DNA of 64,000 bases from a virus, in the IMG/VR virus record IMGVR_UViG_3300029258_004380, positions 3,558-67,557 of that record; one strand, given 5' to 3'. The position numbers and the translations under genes were made by a program. This document shows positions 5,267-43,598 of the stretch, piece by piece (the first letter of the stretch is position 1; every line of letters begins with the position of its first letter). The notes below the pieces were generated by a model, which was given only the letters and a program-made list of their open reading frames with translations, ran no database searches and was not told the DNA's origin.

Positions 5267-5632
5267 TTGAGCCACGTGGTAACCATTAAGCCGATGCTCT
5301 ACGACCCATCGGCAATCCGGGCTGCCTGCGCGCGGCTGGGGCTGGAGCCCCCGCAACACGGTGAGGGTAAGATTTTCACCAACCGGCGAACCGGTCAGAT
5401 CGTCAAGCTGCCCGGTTGGAAATACCCGCTAGTCTGCGATACCAGAACGGGCGAGGTTCACTACGACAACTACAAGGGCCGGTGGAGGGAGCAGAAGCAA
5501 CTCGATCGGTTTTTGCAAGCCTACTCGGTGGAAAAGGCCAAGATCGAGGCCCGCAAGCAGGGGCACTCAGTTGCCGAGCAGTCGCTTAAAGATGGTTCGG
5601 TAAAGCTGACCATTCAGGTCCGGGGAGGATGA
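5267..5632 (+). CDS. DUF1257 (Ycf35-like) protein, planctomycete type
   Basis: MSHVVTI..., LPGWKYP, YDNYKGRW, LQAYSVEKAKIEARKQGH, DGSVKLTI. Confidence 0.85.
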   Translation: MSHVVTIKPMLYDPSAIRAACARLGLEPPQHGEGKIFTNRRTGQIVKLPGWKYPLVCDTRTGEVHYDNYKGRWREQKQLDRFLQAYSVEKAKIEARKQGHSVAEQSLKDGSVKLTIQVRGG

Positions 5633-5829
5633 GGGCAATGGAACTAAAGATCTTCTGCCCGGTCACGGCGGAAATCCCCAACGAAGTTCTCCCCCAACAA
5701 AACCTTTGAGATCTCTTGCAACTACTTTGAGCCCGGCACGCTCGCGTGGTCAAAAGCGGAGAACTTGCCGCAGGCCAGTCCCGGCTGAAACGCCCCAACT
5801 TCTGGTGCGAGGAGGAAAACCAAGCATGA
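5629..5829 (+). pseudogene. small ORF with two in-frame TGA (5707, 5728)
   Basis: ATGA overlaps at both ends lie in the same frame. Confidence 0.5.
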
Positions 5830-6017
5830 AAACCATCGAGATTATTGTCGCCCCCGACGGCAAGACAAGCGTCGAGACCAGGGGCTTTCAGGGCGACGGC
5901 TGCCGATCGGCCTCGGGTGCGCTGGAGCGGGCCTTGGGATTGAAAAAGTCGGATGCGCCCACTGCCGAGTATTTTCAGCAGTCGCACAGCGACCATGTAC
6001 AGGAGGGTCTTGGATGA
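5826..6017 (+). CDS. DUF2997 protein
   Basis: GAGGAGG RBS; MKTIEIIVAPDGKTSVETRGFQGDGC...LERALG. Confidence 0.85.
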   Translation: MKTIEIIVAPDGKTSVETRGFQGDGCRSASGALERALGLKKSDAPTAEYFQQSHSDHVQEGLG

Positions 6018-6208
6018 GCAGACTCAGAAAAGGCTGTGGACGGGGGCGGAGGGCGCGGCGTGAGGATGCAGAAAAGCGACAGCAAGAGCGACGCCGTCGG
6101 ACGGCATCGCAGCAGCTTGGCCGCCTCGACCGGCTGCTGGGTAAGAACCTTGGTGTCCGCAAAGAGCGCGGCCGATTGCTGGCAGAAGTCTCCCGAGGGG
6201 CCGTCTAG
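6014..6208 (+). CDS. small basic phage protein
   Basis: ATGA coupling; QQLGRLDRLLG...KERGRL. Confidence 0.65.
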   Translation: MSRLRKGCGRGRRARREDAEKRQQERRRRTASQQLGRLDRLLGKNLGVRKERGRLLAEVSRGAV

Positions 6209-6402
6209 TGGTTATCATTAACCGCATCGGCGGAAAGTGGAGAATCGTCTTTGGTCTTAGCAGTGATCGCCGCTCTTGGGTTCGTAGGCGCCCGGTGGAG
6301 GCTCACGATCTGGCCGAAGTATTTGCCGTTTTAGGCCATTACTACGGCCACTACCACGCCGAAGAAATCTGTCCCTTGTGCAAGCGAGGAGAAAAACCGT
6401 GA
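6208..6402 (+). CDS. hypothetical protein
   Basis: Coupled at both ends; C-terminal HYH..CPLC. Confidence 0.6.
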   Translation: MVIINRIGGKWRIVFGLSSDRRSWVRRRPVEAHDLAEVFAVLGHYYGHYHAEEICPLCKRGEKP

Positions 6403-6845
6403 CGCAGACACAGACCAAGCTGCAGCAGGACTTGCTGGATTATGTCAACGCCAGAGAATGTCAAAAGCGGGACGCTCGCTTTGAGGAGGCAATACGGATG
6501 ACCGAGGAGGCGTTTCTCAGCGAACTGGGGCAGCTGGTGGGCAACCTCCGCGGGCGGCTTGCCGGCGATCAGGACGGCAGGCCCAAAGTCTTCCGCGATA
6601 CTACGGTGACCAACCTGGCCAAGTTTTTCGGACGCTTTAAGTCGCTGAACGTCAACTCCAGCGAGCAGCTGAACCAGTTGGTGGAGGAGGCCCAGCAGCT
6701 AATCGGCGGAGTTCAGCCACAGATGCTGCGGGAAGACCTCAACCTGAGGCAGCGGATCGGCGAGAGTCTGGGCAGCCTGCAGGAGTCTCTGGACGAACTG
6801 CTGGTAGATCGGCCGCGGAGAAACATCGTACGGAGGCCCAAGTAA
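6399..6845 (+). CDS. C-terminal part of a DUF3150-like planctomycete protein
   Basis: RFEEAI...DGRPKVFRD...FFGRFKSLNV...LLVDRPRRNI; the N-terminal half appears absent. Confidence 0.65.
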   Translation: MTQTQTKLQQDLLDYVNARECQKRDARFEEAIRMTEEAFLSELGQLVGNLRGRLAGDQDGRPKVFRDTTVTNLAKFFGRFKSLNVNSSEQLNQLVEEAQQLIGGVQPQMLREDLNLRQRIGESLGSLQESLDELLVDRPRRNIVRRPK

Positions 6846-6854
6846 GGAGAAACC

Positions 6855-7253
6855 ATGAAAGGACTACTGACTATCTCCCATTTTTCTGGGAGCAGCGAGG
6901 GCGTGAGCATCGAGGTTACCGACAAACTCAGCGGGATACCATTCTTGGAACTGGAAATCAGCCACGAGCAGTTTGGCCGTGCGCTTGGGTCGCAGGCATG
7001 CCGCCCGTGTGAATTCGAGTTGCGAGATACCGAGCGGGTTGGCAAACGGATGGAGGTCAAGACCGTGATGCTGCCCAGATATCTCGGCCAAGACCGGGAG
7101 GTGGCCCTCGCGAAATCTCTTGAGGATGCCCAGCCCTACGAGGTGGACGGCTGGGTGGCCGAGATTGAGCAGGCGTACCGGACTCAACAGCACGGCCACT
7201 ACCTGGTGGTAGTCTTTCGCCGCTACGTCAACGTGGGGGAGAACGGCAAGTAA
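6855..7253 (+). CDS. hypothetical protein
   Basis: AAGGAG RBS, TAATG coupling. Confidence 0.75.
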   Translation: MKGLLTISHFSGSSEGVSIEVTDKLSGIPFLELEISHEQFGRALGSQACRPCEFELRDTERVGKRMEVKTVMLPRYLGQDREVALAKSLEDAQPYEVDGWVAEIEQAYRTQQHGHYLVVVFRRYVNVGENGK

Positions 7254-9465: not shown

Positions 9466-9765
9466 GTGAACGTAAAGAAGTATGTGTCTCGCGTGACTTA
9501 CTACTACAGCCCCGCCCGCGAAGAGGACCTCAGGAGCATGGTCCGCGCTAGCGGACGGTTTATCGGCCGCGACGGCGAGGAGGGGATCTCCTACTGGGTA
9601 CTGGACGGCAAGGTCTACCCGATCTACAACGGTAGCAGTAGAATGACTGAGCCGGTGGAGTATTTCGAGTTCTGCCGCAAGATCCGCAACCGGCAGCTGC
9701 CGAATTTCTGTGGTGCGGACGACTTTCACCTGGGGCATCCGGAAACTGGAGAGGCGGACAGATGA
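9466..9765 (+). CDS. hypothetical protein
   Basis: GAGGAGG RBS, GTG start. Confidence 0.65.
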   Translation: MNVKKYVSRVTYYYSPAREEDLRSMVRASGRFIGRDGEEGISYWVLDGKVYPIYNGSSRMTEPVEYFEFCRKIRNRQLPNFCGADDFHLGHPETGEADR

Positions 9766-9956
9766 CGTTACAGGAAGATTACTCCAGTCTGTCGCTGTCG
9801 GAGCTACTCGGTAGAGCAGCGTGACTGGAGAAAGTTCTTGTCGGGTACGCTGCCAGAACGGGCGTGCGACACAACGATTACCAGAAAATAAACGACCTGG
9901 AGTCATTGCCTGTGCGGCAAGACGACCTAGCAATTTACGAGATTCTCGTTGAGTAA
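9762..9956 (+). pseudogene. small ORF with in-frame TGA at 9822
   Basis: ATGA-coupled start; frame continues 44 codons to TAA and fills the gap exactly. Confidence 0.6.
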
Positions 9957-11512: not shown

Positions 11513-11584
11513 AGGTCGCAATGTTTCCGGTTGGCGATGAGGTCTCCAAAACCTCGTGGCGGGGTTCGACTCCCCGGCGACCTG
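11513..11584 (+). tRNA. tRNA-Trp(CCA) with atypical D arm
   Basis: Acceptor AGGTCGC/GCGACCT plus G73; anticodon arm GAGGT-CTCCAAA-ACCTC; T arm CGGGG-TTCGACT-CCCCG. Confidence 0.85.
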
Positions 11585-11856: not shown

Positions 11857-12354
11857 ATGACAAAACTAGCAGTAGCCTATTGTCGTACGGCCACCCCGCA
11901 ACCGGAGCAGATCCGCAACCAGCAGACGGCGGCGGGGTGTTATGCGACCAACCAACTGCTGACGCTGCGGCCTGCCTGCATTGACCTGGGAGTTTCGGGC
12001 AACACACCGCTGAATGACCGCACGGGGATCGCCCAACTGCTGGCTGAACTGGCCAACGGGGCAGAGGTAGTGCTGGTGAGCAGCGCCGAACGGATCTCCC
12101 GGCAGTTTGAACTGGCGGACGAGTTCCTCAAACTCGCCGAAACCTTTGGCGCCAAGGTGATCGAAACCGAGAACGACCGTATACTGGTTCCCGGGGAGTG
12201 GTTTGAGGGTCGTCTGCCGGTAGCCAAAAACCTCAGCATGCTGTCGTTCGCCGAGTTATCTCGGCGGATCGAGTGGCTACAGGAGAGGGTCGCGAGGCAG
12301 GACGTGATCATCCAAAACCTCCAGCAGCAACTGGCGTCAGATGCCCATGCCTGA
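11857..12354 (+). CDS. resolvase-family protein lacking the catalytic Ser
   Basis: AVAYCRTA, DLGVSG, R.GI..LL, ERISR; C-terminal coiled coil. Confidence 0.8.
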   Translation: MTKLAVAYCRTATPQPEQIRNQQTAAGCYATNQLLTLRPACIDLGVSGNTPLNDRTGIAQLLAELANGAEVVLVSSAERISRQFELADEFLKLAETFGAKVIETENDRILVPGEWFEGRLPVAKNLSMLSFAELSRRIEWLQERVARQDVIIQNLQQQLASDAHA

Positions 12355-12943
12355 AAAAGAGCCTCGCGTCAGCCGCCGGGTTCCCAGGACGATCCGACTG
12401 AATCTCTTGGATCACAAGTTCGGGGAACTCACCGTAGTGGGCTACGGCGGCAAGCGAAAGGGCAACGTCCTCTGGGTCTGCCGCTGCAGCTGCGGTCAGA
12501 TTGGCAAGTATTTTGCCGGTAACCTCCGCAGCGGGGCCTCTCGCCGCTGCGTGGCCTGCGGTCATAAAGTGCCACGTACCGAGCCGGCAGCTAGCGGTAA
12601 GGTCCACACCCCCGAGTACCAAGCGTGGTACTTGGCCAAGAGCAACCGGGCGCTGTGTGGGGAATGGGCAGCAAGTTTCGCGCGGTTTATGAAAGACCTG
12701 GGGCCGCGGCCTTCGGGCGCGCGGCTGTGGCGAAAAGACCACAGCAAGAGACACGGGCCCGAAAATTCCCGTTGGCGGCTGCCGGAGGACGCCGTCGAGG
12801 ACTGCGTGGAGAAGATCCTCGCTGCTGGCGTGGTGGTTCCTGACCCAGAGGCACTCAGAGAACATCTAAAAAGTATCAGCCGACAGGCTCGCCACCAGAT
12901 GGTCGAGCGGGCAAAACAACTGCGGCAGATCGAGGAAATCTAG
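12341..12943 (+). CDS. HNH homing-endonuclease-related protein
   Basis: KFGELTV...WVCRCSCG...NLRSG..RC, TPEYQAW, F..F.KDLGPRP, GPENSRW. Confidence 0.7.
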   Translation: MPMPEKEPRVSRRVPRTIRLNLLDHKFGELTVVGYGGKRKGNVLWVCRCSCGQIGKYFAGNLRSGASRRCVACGHKVPRTEPAASGKVHTPEYQAWYLAKSNRALCGEWAASFARFMKDLGPRPSGARLWRKDHSKRHGPENSRWRLPEDAVEDCVEKILAAGVVVPDPEALREHLKSISRQARHQMVERAKQLRQIEEI

Positions 12944-13720
12944 ATGTCAAGGATCGTAGATCTTACGGGGAAAAGATTCGGAACACTGACAGTTATTGGA
13001 AAACGCAAACGCGAAAACGGGGCAACCAAGTGGTGGTGTCGCTGCGATTGCGGGGACGAGAGGTATTACTATCACGGCAATCTGCAGCAAGGCTTGTCTA
13101 CGCAGTGTGTCAAATGCGCAGGCCGGGCGTTCGGCCGGCGGATGCGGACGCACGGGGAGACAGCAGGCGGCAGGACTACGCCCACCTACGGGGCGTGGCG
13201 GGTCACCCGGGGCGACCGCGTGCCGGAGTGGGACCGCTACTCGCAATTCCTTGCGGACATGGGAGAAAAGCCGGTCAACACCCGGATCAGGCGACCGGAT
13301 CGCAAGCAGCCCTGGGGTCCAGGAAACTGCGCCTGGTGGACCGTCGAGGATGCCCTAGCAGCGGACGTTGAGCAAACCGTCAAGATAATGGTTTCGGCCG
13401 GACAGGGCGAGGACACGCCCCAGTTGAGGAGGCGGCTGGTGGGGGTGTCCCGCGCTCGGCGGGACCAGCTGCGCACACAGGCGATCTCCCGGATCGCCCG
13501 GCGGTTGACTGCCGCCAACGGGCGGCGGCTGGTTGACGCCGTCAGGGCGGAGGCCCGGCGTCAGGGCTGGACACCGCCGTCGCTCTCCCGGGCTACAGGG
13601 GCGAGCCGCGTCGCTGCGAACAATTTTCTCGTCGGCCGAAACGTGAGGCTGGAAACCTTTGCCCGTCTGGCCAGCTTTCTGGGCTTTGAAATGGTGCTGG
13701 GGGGAAACGGAGATGCCTAA
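12944..13720 (+). CDS. HNH-related protein with C-terminal XRE-like HTH
   Basis: DLTGKRFGTLTV...WWCRCDCG, THGE, FLADMGEKP, GPGNCAW; HTH-like tail. Confidence 0.7.
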   Translation: MSRIVDLTGKRFGTLTVIGKRKRENGATKWWCRCDCGDERYYYHGNLQQGLSTQCVKCAGRAFGRRMRTHGETAGGRTTPTYGAWRVTRGDRVPEWDRYSQFLADMGEKPVNTRIRRPDRKQPWGPGNCAWWTVEDALAADVEQTVKIMVSAGQGEDTPQLRRRLVGVSRARRDQLRTQAISRIARRLTAANGRRLVDAVRAEARRQGWTPPSLSRATGASRVAANNFLVGRNVRLETFARLASFLGFEMVLGGNGDA

Positions 13721-15642: not shown

Positions 15643-15792
15643 ATGGACGGAACTCAACGGATTGTCTTTGAGCGACTAATGACCGTAGCCCAGGACGTGG
15701 CCACGGGGAAGTATGACACGGACGACGATTTCGAGATCACCCATTTTGACCTAGACATGGAGGAATTCTTACGAGAGTTGCATAAGACATGA
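15643..15792 (+). CDS. small acidic protein (49 aa)
   Basis: AAGGAG RBS; ATGA-coupled to the next ORF. Confidence 0.6.
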   Translation: MDGTQRIVFERLMTVAQDVATGKYDTDDDFEITHFDLDMEEFLRELHKT

Positions 15793-16037
15793 AGAGAACG
15801 AGGTTGCCCGAGAATAACCCGGACAACTGCTCGGAGTGTGTCGCAGTCTGGAACCAGTTTACGGGAAATCCCGTAGACCCCAAAAAAGTCGAGAGACTGT
15901 CGGACATGTGATGGACAAGAGTCAATTGTTTTTGGAACCTACACCACGGCGACCACATATCTATCGGCGGTGAAAAATGGGTCCGGTTCGTGAGAAACCG
16001 GGCCATCCGCTCGTTCAGCGAGAGAGGAGTAGACTGA
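15789..16037 (+). pseudogene. ORF with in-frame TGA at 15909
   Basis: ATGA start overlap and TGATG end overlap in the same frame. Confidence 0.55.
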
Positions 16038-16851: not shown

Positions 16852-16879
16852 TTGACTTTAGGAGAACTTATGCTAGAAT
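16852..16879 (+). promoter_or_regulatory. possible sigma70 promoter
   Basis: TTGACT-N16-TAGAAT with extended TG; overlaps the candidate RBS/ATG. Confidence 0.4.
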
Positions 16880-17613: not shown

Positions 17614-17970
17614 ATGGCACGTCCGAAGAATGAGAACCGTCGCACTCCGCCCATTTTCTCTACTCGGGCGGAGGCAGCAAAGGCAGGTGAGGAGGGCAAG
17701 CCCTATCGCGTCACCTTTCCGCCGTGTAGCTGCACCCCGCAGGGGACTACCCTGTACACGGTCGCCCGCAGCAACATGGCCGCCACCTACCAAATCTTTC
17801 AGCATCTGGGAGGGATTTGCCGCAGCATAAAGAAGGACATCACCGATCCGGCTGCAGCAATCGCTGCATTGCAGGATCTGAACGCCAAGGATCGCGGCTA
17901 CTATCTGGAGGAACTGCTGCGGGGGATGAGCGCTGCGGAGCGGCGGCGGCTGATTGCCAAACTCAGCTAG
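17614..17970 (+). CDS. hypothetical protein
   Basis: GAGGAG RBS, 118 aa. Confidence 0.7.
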   Translation: MARPKNENRRTPPIFSTRAEAAKAGEEGKPYRVTFPPCSCTPQGTTLYTVARSNMAATYQIFQHLGGICRSIKKDITDPAAAIAALQDLNAKDRGYYLEELLRGMSAAERRRLIAKLS

Positions 17971-32229: not shown

Positions 32230-32248
32230 CGTCTTCTCCTCACGCTAA

Positions 32249-32782: not shown

Positions 32783-33093
32783 TGGTCAAACTCGTTCTCG
32801 GCCTCATCCCAAAGTTCCTCCTCCCCAGCAAAATCATCCAGATCGTCCTCCTCATCCAAGTCCTCCTCGTATGCCAGCTCCTCGTCCTCGTCAGCCTCCT
32901 CGCCCTCGGCGTCGTAGAGCGTCAACAGGTCCTCGGCCATCTCCGCCCACCGGTCGGCGAACGCCTGCAAAAACGCCTCCTTGTCCTCGACGCGGATCAC
33001 GATGGCGTGTCCCTCACCCCCCTGATCGAACTCGGTATAGTAGTAGCCCTCGGCGTAGAGAGCATCGAGATCGAGTCTGAGGTGACTGCTCAT
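32779..33093 (-). CDS. highly acidic small protein
   Basis: ATGA coupling; D/E-rich C-terminal half. Confidence 0.75.
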   Translation of the reverse strand: MSSHLRLDLDALYAEGYYYTEFDQGGEGHAIVIRVEDKEAFLQAFADRWAEMAEDLLTLYDAEGEEADEDEELAYEEDLDEEDDLDDFAGEEELWDEAENEFDQ

Positions 33094-33374
33094 CGTGACA
33101 CTAGGTGGGGAACCACTTCCAGTAATTCAGCGAGGACCTCCGGCCCTAAGGAAAATTCCCCGTAGGGCGACCCCATCACTACCTGCGGACAGGTCCCGGC
33201 CGCCTCAGGGCTCTGACTGATCTCCAGCACGTAGCGCAGTACGGCATTGCGGAAGGGCTGGGGGAGTTCCCCCCAGAGAGCGCGGGCGGCGTGCTGCCGA
33301 CGCTGCCGGTAGAGCGCAATCGCCTCTTTGAGCAGTTGCCAGCTGGTCGGCGGGCGGGTTTGTCCTTGGGCCAT
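33090..33374 (-). CDS. hypothetical protein (probably leaderless)
   Basis: ATG lies 6 nt after TATAAT. Confidence 0.6.
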   Translation of the reverse strand: MAQGQTRPPTSWQLLKEAIALYRQRRQHAARALWGELPQPFRNAVLRYVLEISQSPEAAGTCPQVVMGSPYGEFSLGPEVLAELLEVVPHLVSR

Positions 33375-33379
33375 GATGA

Positions 33380-33415
33380 TATTATACAATGATCTCAGAA
33401 ACCATCTGCAAAATT
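33380..33415 (-). promoter_or_regulatory. promoter motif shared with 13996-14031
   Basis: AATTTTGCAG..GGTT....A.ATCATTGTATAATA; 27/36 ungapped identity. Confidence 0.7.
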
Positions 33416-33450
33416 CTTTACTTAATGGCGCCCATAAGTCCCCACAGCAC

Positions 33451-35943
33451 TCAGCCAATGCTCCGAGTCTTTAGATCAACATCTTTCAGCGCCCCCCAAG
33501 TAAGCCCCGCCTTGAGGTCCACCACAAGGGGAACCGTCAGCCAGTCAAACGCCAGCCCCTCCATCACCACCTTGACCGCCTCGGCTGCATCCCAAAAGCG
33601 GTCCTTAGGCATCGAGGAGATGATCGAGTCGTAGACGGTCAGCACGGGGCGGGCAGAGATCTGCAGTCTCTTAAACACGTAGACCACTCTAGGCAGCGAG
33701 AGCAGAGTGAAATCGCTGGCAGTGCTCTGAATGGGAAAGTTGTAGCCCTGGCGGATGGCCTCGGCGGTGATCTCGGCGTACCGTCGTCGCATGCCGAAAT
33801 GGGTCTCCTGAAACCCCCGGGTCCGCAAGATCCGCTCCTGCTCGGCTATCCACGCCCACATATCGGGAAAAGTCTTCCGGTGGTTGGCGTAAAACCCCAG
33901 AGCCTCCTCCTCGGTGTTGCCGGCAGCGATGAACCGCTTGATGAGCGTGTTCTCGCCCATCCCATAGATCACGCCAAAATTGATCGCCTTGGCATTGCGA
34001 CGCTGAACGGGTGTGACCTCGGCAAGAGGTACACCACAGGCAGCGGCAGCAGTGGCGGCGTGCATGTCCTCGCCAACGCGAAAGATCCGCAGCATCTCCT
34101 TATCGCCAGAGAGACAGGCCAGCACCCGCAGTTCGATCTGCGAGTAGTCGGCCTCCAGCAGTACGTGTCCATCCTCGGCCGTAAACAGCCCCTTAATCTG
34201 GGCGCCGTCCTCCAACACCTTGCCCGCCTTCTCCGGCGAGGTGATGTTGTTGAGGTTGAGGCTCTCGCTGGTAGGGCGGCCGGTGACCGTGCCGTGGAGC
34301 TTATAGGAGGTGTGTGCCCGACCGTCGGCCTCAGAGGCGGCGATCAAACCACGCACCTCTTTGCTAGCAAGCTTTTGCAGGGCGCGGAGAGTGACAATCT
34401 CCGAGACGCAGGGCTCGTCGCTGTAAGTATCCATCACCTCTGCGTCCACCGAATACTCCCCGCCAGCAGTGGTTTTCAGCCTCGGTAGCTTGAGCACATG
34501 CTCCATCAGATTGCGGACCTGCGGATCGCTCAGCGGGTTGAACTCCTTGCCCTGAGCCAACGACCATGCCTTTACGGCGTCAAAGGTCCCCAACTGCCTG
34601 CGGATCTTCTCTATCCTCTCGGTCAAGTACGTTTCGAGCCGCTTGAGGTTCTCGCGGTGGATGGGCACGCCCCGATACTCCATGTCCATCAGCACGTTGC
34701 CCGCCGGCAGTAGCAGTTCCCGCAAGCGCCACCACTGCAGTTCGTTCAACTGCCCCTCAAACACCTCACGCAATCGCCAAGTGGCGTCCACGTCGCGACA
34801 GAGGTACTCGCACAGACGATTGGTGTCGGGAATGCAGAAGGTTGACTTCCAAGGGGCCATCGTGGTGAACAACAGCGCCAGCTGCTCCAGATCGTGGGTT
34901 CCCTTCTCCTCGTCCAAGAGGTAGTGAGCCAACATCGTATCAAACGTGATCCGGCAGTAGTCTACGTCGAACTGGTGGCGAACCCACTTTTGGTCGAAAG
35001 CCACAAAGTTGTGACCAAAGACCTCCTTGGTTCTCAAGAGTTCGGCAATGCGGGGGACGAGATTGTCTTCCACAAACCTGTCGGGCCAGTAGTGCAGAGT
35101 GTTGAGCCCGCGAGCAAAGAGGGGGATCGCCCGGCCGATGCCGGGGCCAAAACTAAACCCGACGGCGATCACCCGACAGTCGTCGTAGGGAAACAGGCGA
35201 GGCCGAAAATTGGTATCGCCGGTCTCCAAGTCGCAAGCCAGGTAGTCGTGCTGGGCAAACTCAGCAAAGAAGCGGTCGCAGTCAGCCTCGGTGCGGGCCA
35301 CTTGGTAGTTGGTGGGGATGTCGCCGCCTCGCTGGATGGTGCCCGCCTCGACCTGCCCGCGTATCCAGCGGAGGTCCTCGACCATCGACTGGTAGAGTGT
35401 CTGGTGCCCGGCCCGGTCCTCAGTGTGAAAGAGCATCGCAGGCTGACGGATGGGAAACACTAGCACCGAGTAGCCCACATCCAGAGCGCAGGGCAACCCC
35501 CGGCGGCGGAGCTTTTTCAGCCCTGTCTGCCCAGTCAACCAAGTCAGGGCCTCAGCCCCGGCGGCAAGGATTACCTTGGGGCGACGATGGCGAATCTCCT
35601 CGACCAGATAGTCCTGACACTGCTGCACGTGTCGCTTGAGGACATTCTTGCCGTGTGGGCAACACTTGATCACGTTGGTTACATAGCAGCTGCGAACGTC
35701 GACCCCGGCCGTCTGCAGCAATTCCCGCAACAGTCGGCCGTTGCCTCCGGCCATCGGGTACCCCCGGCGGTCGTCCTCCACTCCTGGGTGCTTTCCCACG
35801 ATCATGTATGTCGGCGTGCTGTTGCCGGTGCCACCCATACGGTTGGTCTTTAGTTCCGGTGAGGAGCAGAGATCGCAGGCGGCGCACCGCAGATCGGTGC
35901 GGACCTTTCCGTCGACGACGTGTAGCAGGGATAGTTGAGGCAT
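33451..35943 (-). CDS. polA: family A DNA polymerase with N-terminal UDG-family-4-like domain and 3'-5' exonuclease
   Basis: CAACDLC...TNVIKC; DLET, HN..FD, DTML, DV; DYSQIELR, AKAINFGVIYG, VYDS. Confidence 0.95.
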   Translation of the reverse strand: MPQLSLLHVVDGKVRTDLRCAACDLCSSPELKTNRMGGTGNSTPTYMIVGKHPGVEDDRRGYPMAGGNGRLLRELLQTAGVDVRSCYVTNVIKCCPHGKNVLKRHVQQCQDYLVEEIRHRRPKVILAAGAEALTWLTGQTGLKKLRRRGLPCALDVGYSVLVFPIRQPAMLFHTEDRAGHQTLYQSMVEDLRWIRGQVEAGTIQRGGDIPTNYQVARTEADCDRFFAEFAQHDYLACDLETGDTNFRPRLFPYDDCRVIAVGFSFGPGIGRAIPLFARGLNTLHYWPDRFVEDNLVPRIAELLRTKEVFGHNFVAFDQKWVRHQFDVDYCRITFDTMLAHYLLDEEKGTHDLEQLALLFTTMAPWKSTFCIPDTNRLCEYLCRDVDATWRLREVFEGQLNELQWWRLRELLLPAGNVLMDMEYRGVPIHRENLKRLETYLTERIEKIRRQLGTFDAVKAWSLAQGKEFNPLSDPQVRNLMEHVLKLPRLKTTAGGEYSVDAEVMDTYSDEPCVSEIVTLRALQKLASKEVRGLIAASEADGRAHTSYKLHGTVTGRPTSESLNLNNITSPEKAGKVLEDGAQIKGLFTAEDGHVLLEADYSQIELRVLACLSGDKEMLRIFRVGEDMHAATAAAACGVPLAEVTPVQRRNAKAINFGVIYGMGENTLIKRFIAAGNTEEEALGFYANHRKTFPDMWAWIAEQERILRTRGFQETHFGMRRRYAEITAEAIRQGYNFPIQSTASDFTLLSLPRVVYVFKRLQISARPVLTVYDSIISSMPKDRFWDAAEAVKVVMEGLAFDWLTVPLVVDLKAGLTWGALKDVDLKTRSIG

Positions 35944-35949
35944 TTTTTG

Positions 35950-36594
35950 TTACCCCGCAGAGAGTTCCCCCGCAAGATAGGCACGACCTATCGCCATCCG
36001 CGACAGCTTGTTGGCTTCCTCGTAGTGGGCGCAATCAGTGTGGTTGGAAATGGCGTGGATAAATCTCTCTGCTACCACGTCCCAAAGTAGGGATTTTGGG
36101 TACTTGACCGAGAACACGGAGGCAATGTGGAACAACAGCAAGCAGTCGTCTCCCAGACAACCGATGTTCTTACGTTCGTTAACCGCAGGTATGTAGGTGC
36201 CGTTCTGCTGAACAAAGCATCCATTCCTAAGGTTGTAGATCCCGTCGTGAACGTGACAAGTCACCGCCTCGACATACTGCGAGCACACGCGGAGTTTGAC
36301 CGGACCGGTTAACCAGTAGTGCCAGAGCGGGTCCTCGTGCAAAACTTTCTGGTAGAGGTGACTGAGCAGAATTGCGTAGTCCTCATGCCCGGCTCCCTCT
36401 GAAGATATCAGCAGTTCAACCAGAGGCGGTGCTTCTCCCTGTAGCAGATGCTCCCGCCTATCGGCCACCTTTCGAGGCTGGTCCGAGTTGGCATTCTCCT
36501 GAGCCTACGAGTCAAAGGAACTCTGGTACATTTCGGGGTGGTCTACCACGTCTACGTTGGGCAGACCGTCGGCCGTTTCGTTGTTCTCGTTCAT
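35950..36594 (-). CDS. hypothetical protein with in-frame TAG at 36505-36507
   Basis: GGAG-ATG at 36594 is in frame with ORF 35950..36468. Confidence 0.55.
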
Positions 36595-36607
36595 TTCGTT
36601 CTCCATG

Positions 36608-36823
36608 TTAGTGGGGTTCCCGCCAGAGCAGCATGCAGTAGCGGCACTGTCTAAGTTCCTCGCCGCCGTGGGGGTAGTTGTCGTGGGTCACTCTCTTGCT
36701 GCGCGAGCGGCGAGATCCGCAGCGAGGGCATTTCGGACGGGTATGGTGGTAACACACCAACACCGCGCAGCCGACCAGCAAGACGGCCATCACCGGTGAG
36801 TAAAAGACAAAGTAGTAGTACAT
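36608..36823 (-). CDS. membrane-anchored zinc-ribbon protein
   Basis: Hydrophobic N-terminus; CPRC...CRYC; TAATG coupling. Confidence 0.65.
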   Translation of the reverse strand: MYYYFVFYSPVMAVLLVGCAVLVCYHHTRPKCPRCGSRRSRSKRVTHDNYPHGGEELRQCRYCMLLWREPH

Positions 36824-38512
36824 TATCCGGGCGTTCTCCTTTTGGGCGGTAGTTCTCGTAGAATCTCCTCAACCAGCGTAATTCGCCGTCCGATCCATTG
36901 CAGCACAGGCACAGCAATGCTGTTACCCAACGCCTTGTATCGCGGACCGTCTGGGCACTTCTCGCGGGGTTTGTTTCGCCAGGGGATCAGGGTGTAACCG
37001 TCGGGAAAACCCATCAACCTCTCGCATTCGCACACCGACAAACGTCTTACCTCTGCGCCAGCGACAATACCCTCCTGGCGGCGACTACCCTTGTTGGCGT
37101 CGATGGTGGCGTGAACGTCCAACTCTCGCACGCCGCTCTGTGATTCCTTCTGGCCCCAGAGTCGCCCGTAGCTGGCGGACACCGGCGCGGACACCGGCGC
37201 GGTGTGCTGTACCAGAAAGGTCTCGGTCTCGAAGTCTATCCGGCCGCTGCCGCCCTTGGCACTCAGGGCACCGGCAGTGTCGATAGGCCCGGAGGTGTTG
37301 TTGTGACCGTAGGCCACTGCGGTAACTGGGTCTCCGTGGGTATACCCGCCGCGAATCTTGTGACAGGCGGAACAGGGAAAGTTTAGTGTGCCCACAAACG
37401 AATGGCCGCAGTCACACGTCATCTGCCAAAGTTCCAAGAACTGTGTCGCCTTAGGGTAGGCCACCAAATTGGTGTCGTCTTCGCACCGCCGTCCTGCGTA
37501 GCCACCCCTCCCGGCAGACTCTGCACCGCGAGTGAGTGTCGCGGCTGTAGCCGGACAAATCACTAGATTGTCGCTACCGTCGCCTCGTGGACTCGAATGG
37601 CCGTGGTGTCCAGCACTGGCAGCAACAGTGTTGGTGGTATTGTCGCACACCACCAGTGTCTGTGTGCAGTCGCTGTCGGGGCTACCCTTTGCATCGCGAC
37701 TGAGAACCGTTGTAGCCACTAAGTGCTCGCCGGGTTCGGTCCTGAATCCCCCTTCGTTGCCACCGCTGTTAAGGCACGCCGCAGCCGCTCGGGGATCTCC
37801 CAGCCCCGTTTCTCGGCTCGGCGGAGAATCCCCCGACAGGCTCTGGGGCTCAAAAAGTACCGCTGCGGCAGATCTCCAGTCTCCAAAATATCCGACAAGA
37901 AAGACACGACGGCGTCGCTGTGGAACTCCAAAGTGTTGAGCATCAAGAACCCGGTAGGCGAACCCATACCCGAGTTCTGCCAGTGCCCCGAGCAAGGTGC
38001 CAAAATCCCGTCCTTTCGGCTTGCCGGAGGACAACACACCGGGGACGTTCTCCCAGACCAACCATCGGGGGCGTGTGTAGCCAGCAAGCTGACAGAATCT
38101 GAGGGCCAAGTTACCACGCGGATCATCCAAGCCTTTTCTGAGTCCGGCGACTGAGAACGATTGGCAGGGGGTCCCCCCCAACAAGCAGGTCGATTCTTCC
38201 TCTGGCATCTAGCATATCTCCAGTGATCCTCGTTATGTCGCCCAGATTGGGCACTTGCGGATAATGGTACCCCAGAACCTCGCTGGGAAACCTCTCGATC
38301 TCCGAGTACCACGCCGCCCGCCACCCCAGCGGTCCCCAGGCCGCACTCGCCGCCGAGATCCCCGAGCAGGCGCTGCCGAAAACCAGACCGCGCATCCGCA
38401 TGATGTCCAGTTCTCGTTGGTGTTCCTCGCGCTGGTGCTGTACCGACAGCCGGGCGAGAATCTCAGCGTAGTGTCCCCTACGGTCGTCCTTTTTTCGTCG
38501 TCGTGCCATCAA
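36823..38512 (-). CDS. C5-cytosine DNA methyltransferase, frameshifted at G7 tract (38173-38179)
   Basis: Motif I (SACSGI), SEI and GDI in frame 38123..38512; GGTPCQSFS, ENVPG, QRRRRVF, ECERLMGFP and KALGNS in frame 36823..38208. Confidence 0.9.
37719..38130 (-). CDS. alternative-frame ORF inside the C5 MTase (M.EcoHK31I beta-like)
   Basis: LSDILETGDLPQRYFLSPRACRGILRRAEKRG; start uncertain. Confidence 0.6.
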
Positions 38513-39537
38513 ACCCTCAGCGCCAATATGTGTGCAAACCCGTCTTCACCAAACCAGAGCGAGCGAGGATTCTCGGTCATCACGTCGGCGAGATTTCCGG
38601 CGGGAGTCTGCTTCAGCGCGGCAACCAGCCACCCGGCGTCCACCTGAATGTCGAACTCTCCGGCAAAATCCCACGGCAGCGTCTCTTCGGACTGGCCGAT
38701 CTCCTTCTTGACACAAGAGACAGTGAGTTGCCCAGCCCGTTGCGACAGCCGCACCGCCCGCTGTTGCGCAGCGGACGGCGTCACACTGTGCACACGCTGC
38801 ACGACCACCGCCAGTTCATCCGGCCACCTGCAGTTCCACTGCAGGTCGCGGCGGGCCTCGAACAGTCCGGCCAGGGCGGCAGAGGGAAACTCTGCCGCCT
38901 GCAACGCGCAGACCACCGCCGTGCCCGTCTGGGGATACATCGCCACCAGCACCGCGCCGTTGGTAAGCACCTTGCTGGGGCTACCCAGCGCCACCAGTTG
39001 CGAAACCGCTTGGCGGGGGACTGCCACCTCGCCGTCGGCCGGGCGCTGCAGGCGGACGCGAACAAAGCGATTGCCGTCGGTCGCGTAGACCCACTCGCCG
39101 CAGACCCCCACCCCGTGTAGGACCGGTTGTCCGGGGGCCTCGGCGGTCAGCTGCGCGGCGGTCTTCATCGCTGGGACCAGATCGGGTGACTCGCACAGCA
39201 GCCAGGTGTTCTCAGGCAGAAAACGGGGAAAGGCCGCCGGGTCGGTGGTGTTCAGGCGGGTGGTGTTGCCGCCGCTTTTCAGCCGCAGCAGGTTGCCCTC
39301 CACAGCGATCTCGATCGGCCCGCCCATCTGTGAGACCACCCGGTAAAGCGGCCCAGCAGGCACGCAGAAATCGCAGTCGATCCCGCAGCTAGTGGCCACG
39401 CCCAATAGCTGGTTGTAGCCCAACAGCAGCCCGTCGCGCTGGCAGAGATTCCGCAACATCGCCACCGGATGGTTCTTGTCCACCACACGGCGGACGCGGG
39501 AGATAGCCGTCAGAAAATCCTGTTGCAAAACCTGCAT
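38509..39537 (-). CDS. dnaN: DNA polymerase III beta-like sliding clamp
   Basis: 342 aa; FPRF, LHGV, YATDGNR, EFP, IGQSEE motifs. Confidence 0.8.
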   Translation of the reverse strand: MQVLQQDFLTAISRVRRVVDKNHPVAMLRNLCQRDGLLLGYNQLLGVATSCGIDCDFCVPAGPLYRVVSQMGGPIEIAVEGNLLRLKSGGNTTRLNTTDPAAFPRFLPENTWLLCESPDLVPAMKTAAQLTAEAPGQPVLHGVGVCGEWVYATDGNRFVRVRLQRPADGEVAVPRQAVSQLVALGSPSKVLTNGAVLVAMYPQTGTAVVCALQAAEFPSAALAGLFEARRDLQWNCRWPDELAVVVQRVHSVTPSAAQQRAVRLSQRAGQLTVSCVKKEIGQSEETLPWDFAGEFDIQVDAGWLVAALKQTPAGNLADVMTENPRSLWFGEDGFAHILALRV

Positions 39538-39539
39538 GC

Positions 39540-39875
39540 TCACCACTCGATCCCCAAACGGTCCAGGGCATCTTTGACCTCGCTCACGGTGGCCATGTCT
39601 GGGGCACCGTAGTAGGTAACCCTCGTAGGTCCGGCCAGAACCACATCGCGGATTAGCCGCAGCCCGGAGTTCTTGCAAATCTTGCGGCTGCGAGATGAAA
39701 TCTGCAGTCGGTCCACCGGCAATGCCAGCAGGTCTTCCGAGGGGCGCACGAAGGCGTGCTCTCCACAAGTGTCCTCGCGGAACTTTTCCTCCTCGCGGGG
39801 AAAGCGGCGGCAGATTCCGGCAGGCTCGTCAAAGTCCCGAAAATGTCGGCAGTTGCGGCAAAAACGGTTAGCCAT
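39540..39875 (-). CDS. Cys-rich domain plus RNA polymerase alpha-CTD-like domain
   Basis: CRNCRH...C..FP...CGEH; LLALPVDRLQISSRSRKIC..SGL..IRDVV...EVKDAL.RLG. Confidence 0.7.
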   Translation of the reverse strand: MANRFCRNCRHFRDFDEPAGICRRFPREEEKFREDTCGEHAFVRPSEDLLALPVDRLQISSRSRKICKNSGLRLIRDVVLAGPTRVTYYGAPDMATVSEVKDALDRLGIEW

Positions 39876-40512
39876 CGACCAAGGCCCCCACCTCACGGCA
39901 GAAATCGCGGAGTTGTTCGGAAGTAATCGTCTTGGCAACCCGTCGGTAGTATTGCGTCCGAATCATCCGTCGCACTTGATAAAGCAGAAGGCTGCGCCGC
40001 GGCAAGCGGACGAAATTCTCCAACGTCCGCCGAGCTTGCGGAGAAAGCCGGCAGAGAATTTCGTCAGCCCAGCAGCGGTCGGGTGCCGTCGTCTTCCGCA
40101 CCAGGAGGTGCTGCTCCCCGAGAGCATCCTCCAGAGACCTGCCGGCAGATTTGGGCCGACCACCATCCGACCGACACAGACGACTGAAGTGCGTCACTTT
40201 CTGCGGCGCGGGACACCGCCTGCTCGACCACCGGAACTTCACCTCTCTGAGCGAGCAGATTTCCAGATGTCGGTAGAGAAAAGTGAAGAAACCCACACCC
40301 TTCCCGGCGTCGAACCGCTTTGCCGCCTCAAGAGCACACAAGCGTAAGTCGGCAAAGAGGTCCTCCTGCTGGTCCTGCAGCGAGAGCCCATATTTGGGCA
40401 GTCTCGGCAAGACACGTTTTACACAACGCCAAATGTAGTCGTCGTACTTTCCTTCAGCAATTTCCTGCCTCGCCTGCTCCTCACTCCACTCAGTCTCTAC
40501 TGTCGTGGCCAT
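39868..40512 (-). CDS. divergent sigma-70-like factor
   Basis: EDLF.DL.LCALEAAKRFDAGKGVGFFTFLY (region 2); LSPQAR (region 4 start). Confidence 0.65.
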   Translation of the reverse strand: MATTVETEWSEEQARQEIAEGKYDDYIWRCVKRVLPRLPKYGLSLQDQQEDLFADLRLCALEAAKRFDAGKGVGFFTFLYRHLEICSLREVKFRWSSRRCPAPQKVTHFSRLCRSDGGRPKSAGRSLEDALGEQHLLVRKTTAPDRCWADEILCRLSPQARRTLENFVRLPRRSLLLYQVRRMIRTQYYRRVAKTITSEQLRDFCREVGALVDG

Positions 40513-40540
40513 AAGCAATGCTCCTCGCCTCGTTTCTGGG

Positions 40541-40789
40541 CTAATCGAGATAGCCGTACGTCTCCAAAATCATCGTCACCCCACTGCGGATTACCGCCGC
40601 GCGGGAGGGAAAGTCACCAGAATGCTCGGTGATCAAGCGGTCCAGCAGATCAAGCATCTTGGGGGTCAGCCCCACCGAGAGCCGCTGCTGCTTTTGGCCG
40701 TCCAGCGGCGGGCGACCGGCGCGTTTGGAGGGCAGTGGAAAAGGCGGAGGCGGCGGATCAGTTGGAAAACTCAACTTGGGGACAGCCAT
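40541..40789 (-). CDS. ribbon-helix-helix (CopG-like) regulator
   Basis: GRPP...RLSVGL...LDLLD...SRAAVIR; TGATG coupling. Confidence 0.75.
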   Translation of the reverse strand: MAVPKLSFPTDPPPPPFPLPSKRAGRPPLDGQKQQRLSVGLTPKMLDLLDRLITEHSGDFPSRAAVIRSGVTMILETYGYLD

Positions 40790-41676
40790 CAGAACCTCAT
40801 CTCCTCCAACAAGCTCTGCAGTTCCCACTCGCGGCAGAAGGCCACAAACGCCCTCAGGTCCCGGCGCCGGGAGTGGCGGCTCTGCTGGACAAACTCATAA
40901 CACTCCGCGCCGTCGTAGGGCGTCTGGCCGAGATCGCGGGGCAGACGCATCAGTTCGAGGTTTCTCAGCACCAGATCGTGCTGCTTGGAAACCACCTCGC
41001 CCCAGTGGTCGGCCTGCTTGATCGCCTTCTGGTCGCTGAGATTGGCAGGTCCGTTGACCACCAGCCGCGCCCGCTTGATCCCCACACTGCGCACGCCAGC
41101 GATGGCGTCGGCGGAATCGCCGACGATCGCTCGCAGGCGAAGAATCTTATCGGCCGAGTCCACCTCCCACTGCGATAGCACGTCGGTGTGTGAGAGCCAG
41201 CCGCGGCGGGAGTCGTAAATGGAGATCCGCGGCGAGACCAGCTGATGAAAGTCCTTGTCGCCGGAAAAGATCACCACCGGCCGAGGCGTGCTGTGGGCCA
41301 ACACCGAGATCCAGTCGTCGGCCTCAGTGCCGCGAATGCGGATGCTGCGACAGCCCAGCGTGGCCAAGCCCCAACGCAGCGCGCGGATCTGGTTGACGTA
41401 GGCCAGCTGCTCGGCCCGCTGCTGGTCGCTGGGATTCTCAGGCACCCGGCCCGACTTGTACTCGGGGAAGAGTTCCAGACGCCGGCGAGCCTTGCCGCCG
41501 TCCCAAACCACGGTGGTCTGCGAAGCGCTCGCGCGCAATTCGCCGGCCGTAAAGGCAAGCCCCTTTAAGAAGCCATAGACGACGCCCGAGGGACGGCCGT
41601 CGGAGGTGCACAGATCGGCAACCTTGGAGTACCGGCAGCGGGCAGCGAGATGATTGCCGTCGACGAGGAGTTCCAT
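40789..41676 (-). CDS. 5'-3' exonuclease (FEN / T4 RNase H-like)
   Basis: LLVDGN, VVWDG, YK..R, EADD, SGDKDF.QL, GD.AD.I.GV..VG.K. Confidence 0.92.
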   Translation of the reverse strand: MELLVDGNHLAARCRYSKVADLCTSDGRPSGVVYGFLKGLAFTAGELRASASQTTVVWDGGKARRRLELFPEYKSGRVPENPSDQQRAEQLAYVNQIRALRWGLATLGCRSIRIRGTEADDWISVLAHSTPRPVVIFSGDKDFHQLVSPRISIYDSRRGWLSHTDVLSQWEVDSADKILRLRAIVGDSADAIAGVRSVGIKRARLVVNGPANLSDQKAIKQADHWGEVVSKQHDLVLRNLELMRLPRDLGQTPYDGAECYEFVQQSRHSRRRDLRAFVAFCREWELQSLLEEMRF

Positions 41677-41742
41677 CTGCTAAGCGGGTTCCCGTCGGTC
41701 CTGAGGTGGTTAATCCATTAGTAAACTCACCGTGCAAGTCCT

Positions 41743-41771
41743 AGCATAATGTATTGTGAAATGGATTGCAA
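41743..41771 (-). promoter_or_regulatory. sigma70-type promoter containing an operator-like motif
   Basis: TTGCAA-N17-TATGCT; spacer motif shared with 62482-62501. Confidence 0.65.
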
Positions 41772-41777
41772 GCGCAA

Positions 41778-42743
41778 TTACTGCCCAATTCGCAAAAAAT
41801 CCGAAATTCCCCCCACCGGAACCGCGTGAGCGACCAGATCCCAACACTTCTGGTAACCTAGCGAGTTTGGGTCGTCCCCGGAGGGGATCTCAGCGACGTA
41901 GTTGGTGAACATCGTGCCGGTCATCTGCAGTGCGGCCCGCCGCTGCTTGGCGGCAGCGTCGGGGTCGAGCATCCAAACCAGCCGCCTGACGCCCCGCCGC
42001 TTTCTGAGTTCCAGCAGCTGGACGAGCTGGCCGGGGTGGAGCACGCTGCCAAAGATTCCCGCCGCGTTGGTCCGCAAAGTTTCGGCGTCAAAGATCGATT
42101 CGGTGATCACCACAAAGTCCTGAGAGAGGTCCCAGGCAGGTGTGCAGTAGATCGTCACACCAGTGGGAAACATCGACAGTGACTTGGTGGGATGTTTTAG
42201 AAAACTCTTAGCCTCAAAACCGACCAGCTGGTCGTCGAGATCGCGGACCGGCAATATCCAGCGGTCGGCGTACTTGCCCTCCACGCAAAGGTAGATCCGC
42301 CCCTGCATATGCTCCAGCCCGCGTCGGCGGAGAACCTCGCGAGAGGGATGCTCGTCGTACGCCTCGTCAAGTGGGATCGCCTCCTGCGGGATAGAAATCT
42401 GTTTCTGTTTGGGCAACCTCTCCGACGAGATCCCATCGGGGTAGTCGGCCAACTCCAGCACCCGCTCGATGGCCTCCCGATGGGAGATCCCTTCAACTAG
42501 AGAGATCAGGTCCAGCAGCCCCCCGCGCCCCGACCACGTCTGTCCCCCGTGATCGCCGTGGTCGCAGCGGTAGCAGCGGCAGTTGCGGAACTGTTGGTTA
42601 ATCTCCAAGGTGTCACGACCACCGCAATGGGGACAGTCTGCGCGAACCTTCTCGCGGGAGAGATCGCCGGTCTTCAGCCCCGACTCTACCAGCCAGCGAC
42701 GAATGGGAAATTCTTTGATCGCCTGTTTGAAATCAGTGGGCAT
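41778..42743 (-). CDS. DNA primase
   Basis: CPHC...CYRC zinc finger; TESIFDA, LDPDA, DPN (TOPRIM). Confidence 0.9.
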   Translation of the reverse strand: MPTDFKQAIKEFPIRRWLVESGLKTGDLSREKVRADCPHCGGRDTLEINQQFRNCRCYRCDHGDHGGQTWSGRGGLLDLISLVEGISHREAIERVLELADYPDGISSERLPKQKQISIPQEAIPLDEAYDEHPSREVLRRRGLEHMQGRIYLCVEGKYADRWILPVRDLDDQLVGFEAKSFLKHPTKSLSMFPTGVTIYCTPAWDLSQDFVVITESIFDAETLRTNAAGIFGSVLHPGQLVQLLELRKRRGVRRLVWMLDPDAAAKQRRAALQMTGTMFTNYVAEIPSGDDPNSLGYQKCWDLVAHAVPVGGISDFLRIGQ

Positions 42744-42744
42744 T

Positions 42745-43006
42745 GGACGTCACCGCGGCGGGTTGACCACCACCAGTATCTTGTTGGACCTCACCGGCCT
42801 AAGATCGACCCCTCCACGTAGAGGCTGTTTTCGGGCATCTCGTTGCTATCACACGCGTTGACCACATTGGGGTGGAAGATCAGCCGATCGTAGGTCCAGC
42901 CCAAGAGCCTCGCAGCCGCGTTGGCATGCCCGCCGATCTCGGCGCCGATGCCGGCAGGCACGATCATCACCACGTTGAAATTAGTATCTGTCGATACACA
43001 CGTCAT
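42745..43006 (-). pseudogene. DUF3326 remnant
   Basis: IVPAGIGAEIGGHA..HPNVVNA.D.NEMPENSLYVEGSIL, then a frameshift to RPVRSNKILVVVN and truncation. Confidence 0.7.
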
Positions 43007-43373
43007 TGACGATCTCTCCCCCAAACCACGAAACCACGAACTGGCGGACCGCCTGCGGATCGAAATCTTTGCAGATAAATACGTTCAGACGCACCGCCTC
43101 TTGAAATTCTAGGGTGTGGATGGTGATGTTCGAGGTGTGGGTAAACTGCACGGCAGCGGTGCCTTTCAGGTGCGGCTCGGTCTCCCACTGCCACGGCAGA
43201 GCCAGAAAGTCGTCCCGCCAGTAGAGCGGACCACGAACCATATCAATCCGCTCGCAGAGTTCCCGCATAAACCGCTTGATGCTACGGTAGGTAAAGGTCT
43301 TGGGATCACAGCCGTGCAGGTCGAGGATGAGTTCTTTGCCGTAGGTCGGCAGTGTTGTTTCTTGTTGAGTCAT
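42981..43373 (-). CDS. speD: S-adenosylmethionine decarboxylase-like protein
   Basis: YGKELILDLHGC, G..AVQF..TSNITIHT, NVFICK.FD. Confidence 0.8.
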   Translation of the reverse strand: MTQQETTLPTYGKELILDLHGCDPKTFTYRSIKRFMRELCERIDMVRGPLYWRDDFLALPWQWETEPHLKGTAAVQFTHTSNITIHTLEFQEAVRLNVFICKDFDPQAVRQFVVSWFGGEIVNDVCIDRY

Positions 43374-43385
43374 TACGTACCCCTG

Positions 43386-43598
43386 TCAGTGTGGGGAGTC
43401 CCGTTCGCCGCGTTTCCAGGCAACAAAATCGCGGTAGCCCTCCTTTAACTCCTTGCGGTGCAAACGGCAAAACGCAGCCAGTTCGTCGTAAGTGATCTGA
43501 TCGTCCTGGGGAAACCCGACGACGGCCAGAACAATCGGTTTTCAGGGAAACCGGCAGTCATCGTCGGCCCAGTTGTCGACCTCTTTCCAGTCAGTCAT
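43386..43598 (-). pseudogene. ORF with in-frame TGA at 43542-43544
   Basis: GAGGAG RBS; 71 codons filling the gap. Confidence 0.6.

Follow-up and report, generated by a model that had tools for sequence, protein, structure and literature searches.

Premature stop codons in small open reading frames of a large environmental phage: one probable orphan pseudogene among ordinary gene ends

Eight stop codons in seven small open reading frames

The DNA examined here is a stretch of 64,000 nucleotides from a large environmental phage, comprising bases 3558–67557 of the linear 67,557-bp IMG/VR record IMGVR_UViG_3300029258_004380 (CheckV completeness ~32 %) and referred to below as the window. Its GC content is 55–63 % (~60 %), and the genes lie on the plus strand up to position ~17,970 and on the minus strand beyond it. 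A preliminary description of this DNA had pointed to eight in-frame stop codons in seven small open reading frames (ORFs), here designated A to G, and had proposed either decay of dispensable genes by C-to-T change or conditional read-through. All eight triplets were found in the positions and frames described, namely TGA at 5707 and 5728 (A), 9822 (B) and 15909 (C) on the plus strand and at 43542 (D) on the minus strand, and TAG at 21816 (E), 30123 (F) and 36505 (G) on the minus strand. The reading we lean towards is that these eight stops are a mixed bag rather than a single phenomenon, made up of ordinary gene ends together with limited decay of accessory genes.

The further observation that each ORF has a ribosome-binding site or a coupled start was largely borne out. 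ORFs A (ATG 5629), B (ATG 9762) and C (ATG 15789), all on the plus strand, start in ATGA overlaps, that of A being preceded by GGGGAGG. On the minus strand, the start of D (ATG 43598) is preceded by a GAGGAGG ribosome-binding site, E starts in a TAATG overlap (ATG 21857) and the start of G (ATG 36606) is one base past the TAA of the gene upstream. Each stop can be derived from CGA, CAG or TGG by a single transition, as described, but this is uninformative, as by simple reasoning it holds for every TGA and every TAG. Likewise, no long gene in the window carries an in-frame stop, but the statement that core genes are spared has to be set against a C5 cytosine methyltransferase gene that a frameshift at a run of seven G has left in two pieces (see below).

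ORF D and the candidates G and B

Coding potential was assessed with a codon log-odds model trained on the long ORFs of the window, and the nulls were equal-length in-frame and open off-frame windows drawn from confident genes. ORF D (43386–43598, minus strand) is a frame of 70 codons in which the TGA at 43542–43544 is codon 19. The 18 codons before the TGA score 0.47 log-odds per codon, a value reached by 0.7 % of open off-frame windows (P=0.007), and the 25 codons that lie after it and before a TTG score 0.50 per codon, reached by 0.2 % of off-frame windows (P=0.002). That TTG, 26 codons downstream, is the sole in-frame ATG, GTG or TTG after the stop, and no Shine–Dalgarno motif was found in the 26 coding-like codons between the stop and the TTG. 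Because the coding signal is present on both sides of the stop and there is no independent downstream start, D has the make-up of a nonsense pseudogene. It very probably represents one orphan gene that was originally 70 codons long and in which a TGA nonsense codon has become fixed, and it is the one well-supported interrupted ORF of the seven.

The context of the stop in D is ccc TGA a, i.e. CCC-UGA, which is known to be prone to +1 frameshifting in Escherichia coli. Frameshifting was considered as an explanation of D and rejected because the +1 frame downstream of the stop is not coding-like.

ORF G (35950–36606, minus strand) consists of a 33-codon ORF (36508–36606) that ends at the TAG at 36505–36507, followed by 12 open codons and then by the GTG at 36468 that starts an ORF of 172 aa. 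The log-odds are 0.39 for the upstream 33 codons (P=0.013 against off-frames) and 0.31 for the 12-codon spacer (P=0.074). In the public record this region is called as separate products of 33 or 29 aa and 172 aa, and these calls are only the ORFs of this phage itself. G may be a gene of 218 codons carrying a nonsense codon or it may be two adjacent genes; the first of these is plausible, but G is ambiguous as open junctions in the same frame are common in this DNA (9 of 32, or about a quarter). The presence of a GTG 12 codons past the stop means that G shares the features of a nonsense pseudogene only in part.

ORF B (9762–9956, plus strand) is a frame of 64 codons in which the TGA at 9822–9824 is codon 21 and the first in-frame start past the stop is a GTG at 9864. 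Its downstream 43 codons are coding-like (0.28 log-odds per codon, P=0.06). The upstream 20 codons score −0.11 per codon (P=0.47 against off-frames), and only 1 % of true in-frame windows are so low. The part of B ahead of the stop scores like non-coding DNA, and the case for B as an interrupted gene is weak.

An alternative is that no ORF is interrupted and that the coding-like segments after the stops of D, G and B are separate small genes, expressed by translational coupling or by re-initiation from weak or non-canonical starts. Candidate starts are available, with ATT or CTG 3–5 codons past the TGA of D and the GTG at 36468 for G, and many confident genes in the window also have no clear Shine–Dalgarno motif. 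The public gene calls, which divide G in two, and the frequency of open same-frame junctions fit this explanation. It is at odds with the 26 coding-like codons of D, through which there is neither an ATG, GTG or TTG nor a Shine–Dalgarno motif, and the 12 codons ahead of the GTG in G are also coding-like. We consider it improbable, though it is the likeliest of the alternatives to the reading given above.

Open frames expected by chance and the ordinary ORFs A, C, E and F

The preliminary description had noted that each ORF, when read through, fills the gap to the next gene. In the five off-frames of 49 confident genes, stops occurred at 0.0248 per codon. The share of equal-length off-frame windows with no more stops than observed was lowest for E (43 %), C (44 %) and F (45 %), intermediate for D (51 %) and B (55 %) and highest for G (69 %) and A (77 %). 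For windows of 64–83 codons with at most one stop the range was 43–55 %. Among 32 ordinary same-strand gene junctions with gaps of 0–300 nt, 13 were in the same frame, and nine of these 13 had no further stop in the spacer, which makes these undisputed gene ends indistinguishable from the cases described. Filling of the gaps is therefore no more than is expected by chance and, as off-frames in GC-rich DNA are open by chance, a frame that fills a gap is not evidence of recoding.

Four of the seven ORFs look ordinary on their codon statistics and surroundings (P=0.17–0.50 for all segments of A, C, E and F). C, E and F appear to have normal gene ends, A appears to be a non-coding spacer, and the read-through extensions apparent in all four are attributable to the long chance open frames of a 60 % GC genome.

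Frame A (5629–5829, plus strand) occupies a 193-nt spacer between a gene of 121 aa (5267–5632) and a DUF2997 gene (5826–6017), and includes the TGA codons at 5707 and 5728. No convincing coding signal was detected in it (0.02 and 0.17 log-odds per codon, P=0.34 and 0.17), and 77 % of 66-codon off-frame windows have two stops or fewer. A scan of the spacer gave a single hit, a promoter-like site on the minus strand; the plus strand had none, and terminator-like sites were absent from both strands.

ORF C (15789–15911, plus strand) encodes 40 aa and ends at the TGA at 15909. Read-through would carry it 60 nt into the DUF4326 gene (ATG 15977) in a different frame, and neither the upstream part (0.18 log-odds per codon, P=0.18) nor the downstream part (−0.01, P=0.36) stands out. 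For E (21606–21857, minus strand), there is an ordinary ORF of 67 aa starting at ATG 21809, and its exact 67-aa sequence was present on four contigs. The TAG at 21816 is two codons upstream of that ATG, within the 47-nt spacer behind an SbcC-like gene, and the 13 codons upstream of the TAG have a GC content at third codon positions (GC3) of 0.31 and an unremarkable codon log-odds (P=0.26).

ORF F (30123–30278, minus strand) encodes a 51-aa HTH_17 or excisionase-like protein (phrog_66) that ends at the TAG at 30123–30125. Its match to HTH_17 (PF12728) scores 32.1 bits against a cut-off of 27 and covers residues 10–49 and profile positions 1–39 of 51. The domain had been described as broken before its last helix, but read-through adds nothing: with the TAG read as Q the match scores 31.6 bits and still stops at profile position 39. 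The residues VLTAL that would follow the TAG could by eye fit what we take to be the end of the HTH_17 consensus, though this is not a test. The 28 codons past the stop carry no coding signal (GC3 0.36, log-odds −0.11, P=0.48). In the spacer next to F, two terminator-like sites were found on the plus strand, opposite to the genes, and these, like the promoter-like site in A, have no bearing on read-through.

The stop codons in other assemblies

Seven public sequencing runs contain part of the segment 30,000–39,999, and four of them, here X1 to X4, contain 94–99 % of its words. Three studies contributed these four, the sediment runs dating from 2018 and the seawater runs from 2021, and three of the four may be the source of the window. 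Their contigs were compared with the window over 24,000–43,900. At 30123, 36505 and 43542, the contigs of X1–X4 have the same stop codons as the window, at a depth of 6–10. The long pieces listed for X1 and X2 span all three positions, and those of X3 and X4 span 36505, with depth alone at 43542. Differences between the haplotypes were confined to substitutions at 24154, 33489, 36631, 36765 and 36904 and one single-base indel. Indirect support came from exact ORFs ending at 15909 (40 aa, on four contigs) and at 36505 (33 or 29 aa), which were found on 2–4 contigs from several sources.

Position 33489 is G in the window and T in all four runs (PolA codon 819, L to M), so that none of the four assemblies compared is identical to the window.

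Sequencing or assembly errors in the IMG/VR contig could in principle have produced the stops, as the contig comes from a metagenome assembly and departs from all four runs at 33489. Against this, independently built contigs of four runs agree at 30123, 36505 and 43542, and the ORFs ending at 15909 and 36505 recur in other sources. Assembly error is excluded for 30123, 36505 and 43542, and as a general explanation of the stops we regard it as scarcely credible.

Recoding and read-through

The terminators of the 49 confident genes are TGA in 28, TAA in 11 and TAG in 10. Coding density, estimated with our own crude gene caller, was 0.91 with the standard code, 0.82 with TGA as a sense codon and 0.91 with TAG as a sense codon. 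Neither a rise in density, nor a rare recoded stop, nor low GC, the features by which an alternative code is recognized, was seen. No Pfam match among the 94 ORFs of at least 60 aa, in a window that has no structural module, required read-through of a stop.

The preliminary description had called for a search for suppressor tRNAs and release factors. In the 67.5-kb record, which represents ~32 % of the genome, no release factor (RF-1 domain) and no suppressor tRNA were found. The only tRNA-like gene in the record, detected by ARAGORN at 11513–11584 (plus strand), has the anticodon CCA (Trp) and is not a suppressor by its anticodon. Its acceptor, anticodon and T arms are perfect, but the D-arm is atypical, with a weak D-stem of 3 bp, and position 8 is A instead of U. 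The gene did not match the general tRNA model of Rfam (RF00005) and scored 31.5 bits with the tRNA-Sec model, below the gathering score of 47, a result that we ascribe to the odd D-arm. No RNA structure of unusual stability was found at the stops, with six stretches of 91–101 nt giving z-scores of +1.10 to −1.34 against shuffled sequences, and no Rfam family was matched at its gathering score. The eight stop contexts share no clear motif.

The suggestion that conditional read-through gates the accessory genes is thus unsupported by the common use of the same terminators, the unchanged or lower coding density, the search for a suppressor or release factor and the RNA folds. In its most explicit form, the TGA of D, and perhaps that of B, would be decoded, for instance as Trp by a near-cognate tRNA-Trp or with the help of factors encoded elsewhere in the genome. 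Some observations are in keeping with this. D retains full codon bias on either side of its fixed TGA, the phage has a tRNA-Trp(CCA)-like gene in which the D-arm is unusual, and only ~32 % of the genome is in view. In addition, the TGA of B is followed by C, and TGA-C is, as a matter of general background, the leakiest context in E. coli. But TGA terminates 28 of the 49 confident genes and density falls to 0.82 when it is read as sense; neither a suppressor anticodon nor a release factor is found in the record and the folds are no more stable than shuffles; and, as both TGA and TAG are involved, two mechanisms would be required. The GC content of 60 % also differs from the low GC described for recoded phages in the portions of Borges et al. 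drawn on here (10.1101/2021.08.26.457843). Taken together, these points make read-through distinctly unlikely.

More specifically, the fixed TGA of D, and perhaps those of B, A and C, might be read as Trp by the non-canonical tRNA-Trp(CCA) of the phage, acting through its odd D-arm as a UGA suppressor of the Hirsh type, so that tiny accessory proteins would be made only once the tRNA is expressed in infection. By analogy this could be seen as a GC-rich, partial and early-region form of phage stop-codon recoding. All that speaks for it is that the tRNA-like gene and the stops occur together, and we rate both the mechanism and its wider interpretation as very remote prospects. If true, UGA suppression by a phage tRNA-Trp with an altered D-arm would bring early accessory genes, and a marine or sediment phage of high GC content, into the range of phage code switching.

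Insertion of selenocysteine at the TGA of D, where the local sequence is C-R-F-P-[TGA], was also considered. There is a Cys four residues ahead of the TGA and a hairpin that starts ~6 nt after it. However, the fold at D is no more stable than shuffled sequences (z=−0.67), the spacing differs from the usual CxxU, and there are no selenocysteine genes and no tRNA-Sec, the one tRNA-like gene having the anticodon CCA and not reaching the gathering score of the tRNA-Sec model. No homologue with Cys at that position and no Rfam family at gathering score was found, and the chance that D encodes a selenoprotein is negligible.

Other damaged genes in the window

The C5 cytosine methyltransferase gene (36823–38512, minus strand) that the preliminary description ascribed to the phage is indeed present but is out of frame in this haplotype. 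It consists of two overlapping ORFs, the frame shifting just before the PCQ motif at a G7 tract (C7 on the plus strand, 38173–38179). The upstream frame enters the tract with DLLVGG and the downstream frame leaves it with GGTPCQSFS, and the Pfam DNA_methylase match of the 461-aa piece begins only at profile position 61. The tract is the sole run of seven G or C in the window. The contigs of X3 and X4 lack one base at 38173, so that both pieces fall into a single frame, and X1 and X2 have G7 as in the window. The methyltransferase may be phase-variable or it may have been inactivated recently.

A second damaged gene lies two genes downstream of D, between an S-adenosylmethionine (AdoMet) decarboxylase-like gene and a primase gene. 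It is a DUF3326 stub (42791–42973, minus strand), a 60-aa N-terminal remnant that matches profile positions 2–62 of 337 (1.4e-15). The rest of the gene is absent, and the primase-like gene (phrog_47, 6.4e-31) begins only 47 nt further on. The 321-aa ORF that follows the stub was examined as the possible remainder of the gene and rejected, as it is primase-like. The third is a serine recombinase gene (16852–17601, plus strand), in which the match to the Recombinase domain covers positions 1–52 of 102 and then ends. An ORF in the same frame begins 12 nt past the recombinase (17614–17970), and it does not match the missing part of the domain.

The window's replication genes are intact. From these gene structures, the accessory genes of this fragment appear to be visibly decaying or, in the case of the methylase, switching. 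The frameshifted methyltransferase, the DUF3326 stub and the truncated recombinase fit with D being a nonsense pseudogene, without showing that the change was from C to T or involved 5-methylcytosine, a route for which neither the stop contexts, with no clear motif in common, nor the out-of-frame methylase of this haplotype speaks.

Weight of the evidence

The proposal of decay of dispensable genes therefore holds in part. It fits D well and may fit G and B, and the other damage agrees with it, but nothing special has to be invoked for A, C, E and F. D, possibly G and less likely B would be young pseudogenes, or would encode truncated products of dispensable accessory genes, and the event at the point of interruption would be a loss-of-function mutation rather than a regulated one. 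As a rough ranking, a true interruption is highly likely for D, an even chance for G, doubtful for B, unlikely for F, quite improbable for C, very improbable for A and hardly conceivable for E.

Several points weigh against this assessment. In D, the nonsense codon is fixed and the codon bias is intact on both sides of it, and a functional read-through site would look the same. Suppressor genes could lie elsewhere in the genome, as the record covers ~32 % of it. The codon model was trained on the long ORFs of this same window and has little power for segments of 12–26 codons. Support at the level of single bases in other contigs covers three of the eight stops (30123, 36505 and 43542), to which support at the level of ORFs adds 15909. 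The four runs compared are ~99.98 % identical over 20 kb and, for this reason, fixation of the stops in them is silent on selection. Finally, A, B, C, D and G are without a homologue in the collections searched, and so provide neither an ancestral residue at the stop nor an intact allele.

Homologue searches for the small ORFs

Pfam and PHROGs gave nothing for A, B, C, D or G, and exact-sequence look-ups of the small ORFs found no longer alleles. A word search with D and B found no words shared with anything. For G, only its own 172-aa ORF was found among 5.8 billion clusters and no homologue was found in phages; in the ESM Atlas the best score for the 172-aa ORF was 0.80, which is at chance level. 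A HMMER search with D against 1.84 billion representative sequences gave five matches, all to long tandem-repeat proteins with 3–11 matched stretches each. These five were rejected as chance matches because the single BLASTP alignments scored only 20–30 bits, well short of significance in so large a library, and the totals were inflated by near-identical repeats. The structure predicted for D by AlphaFold2 from the single sequence (predicted local distance difference test score 66) was uninformative.

Gene content and relatives of the phage

A module for replication and nucleotide metabolism was identified using Pfam and PHROGs. It includes a family A polymerase fused to a UDG domain, a DnaB-like helicase, a primase and RecA, an SbcC/SbcD-like pair and a 5′–3′ exonuclease, as well as ThyX, a dCMP deaminase and two sigma factors. 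The same searches revealed an island of two resolvases, two HNH endonucleases and two methylases. They also identified a long cluster of sugar and nonulosonic acid genes on the minus strand (44297–48204 and 54402–62454). No structural genes were found in the 64-kb window.

At 12341–13720 (plus strand), two paralogous HNH endonuclease ORFs lie head to tail in the same frame, parted only by the TAG at 12941, and both match phrog_374 at positions ~191–344. The sugar cluster contains NeuB, two UDP-GlcNAc 2-epimerases, a CMP-sugar cytidylyltransferase, a lyase of the DHDPS family and an acetyltransferase. Two neighbouring ORFs in it belong to the GT29 (sialyltransferase) family, and one of these also matches a sulfotransferase.

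A megablast search of 24 kb against 50,697 phage records found no close relative. Scans with the PolA protein found no relative in IMG/VR or in GTDB genomes and only matches of 27–30 % identity in JGI metagenomes; in a tblastn search against phages, PolA was at best ~30 % identical to isolates. The N6/N4 methylase was found at three IMG/VR loci (49, 32 and 22 % identity) that had no other gene in common with the window. A scan for relatives with the AdoMet decarboxylase found none, and the exact DNA pattern around 9822 was absent from IMG/VR.

Comparison with known systems

Phages in which a stop codon is recoded (TAG to Q or TGA to W) have, in the portions of Borges et al. used here (10.1101/2021.08.26.457843), low GC and a depleted recoded stop. 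According to the same portions of that work (10.1101/2021.08.26.457843), coding density under the alternative code rises by more than 10 %, which is the criterion applied to contigs of 5–100 kb, suppressor tRNAs are frequent and the in-frame stops are mainly in structural and lysis genes. The phage examined here is like them in having in-frame TGA and TAG codons in a phage from a metagenome. In contrast to what those portions describe, it has a GC content of 60 %, TGA is its commonest terminator, density does not rise, there is no suppressor in the record, and the in-frame stops, which are of two different kinds, affect at most one to three tiny orphan ORFs.

Leaky read-through of UGA by tRNA-Trp produces the A1 protein of phage Q-beta, and the Hirsh suppressor is a D-arm variant of the tRNA-Trp of E. 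coli. The parallels here are D, in which a coding-like extension follows the UGA in frame, and the tRNA-Trp(CCA)-like gene of the phage, whose unusual feature is likewise in the D-arm. Here, the putative tRNA is known from its sequence, no conserved extension is seen and the ORFs with TAG would fall outside such a mechanism.

Homopolymeric tracts in phase-variable DNA methyltransferases are well known. The difference between G7 and G6 in different samples, which switches the frame of the C5 methyltransferase, is similar. The present case differs in that the assembled contigs of the four runs show just two tract lengths, and in that the tract is shorter than those of classical contingency loci.

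The closest counterparts are pseudogenes of accessory (orphan) genes in large phages, produced by nonsense mutation, frameshift or deletion. The claim made here differs in that it is derived from codon statistics and a missing start codon rather than from an intact homologue or allele, and it comes with the caution that non-coding frames in GC-rich DNA stay open for 60–80 codons about half the time. The likeness consists of a premature stop fixed in a codon-biased frame (D, possibly G and B), together with a frameshifted methyltransferase and truncated genes nearby and intact replication genes. One well-supported interrupted orphan ORF, with at most two further candidates, amounts to ordinary gene decay and changes little.

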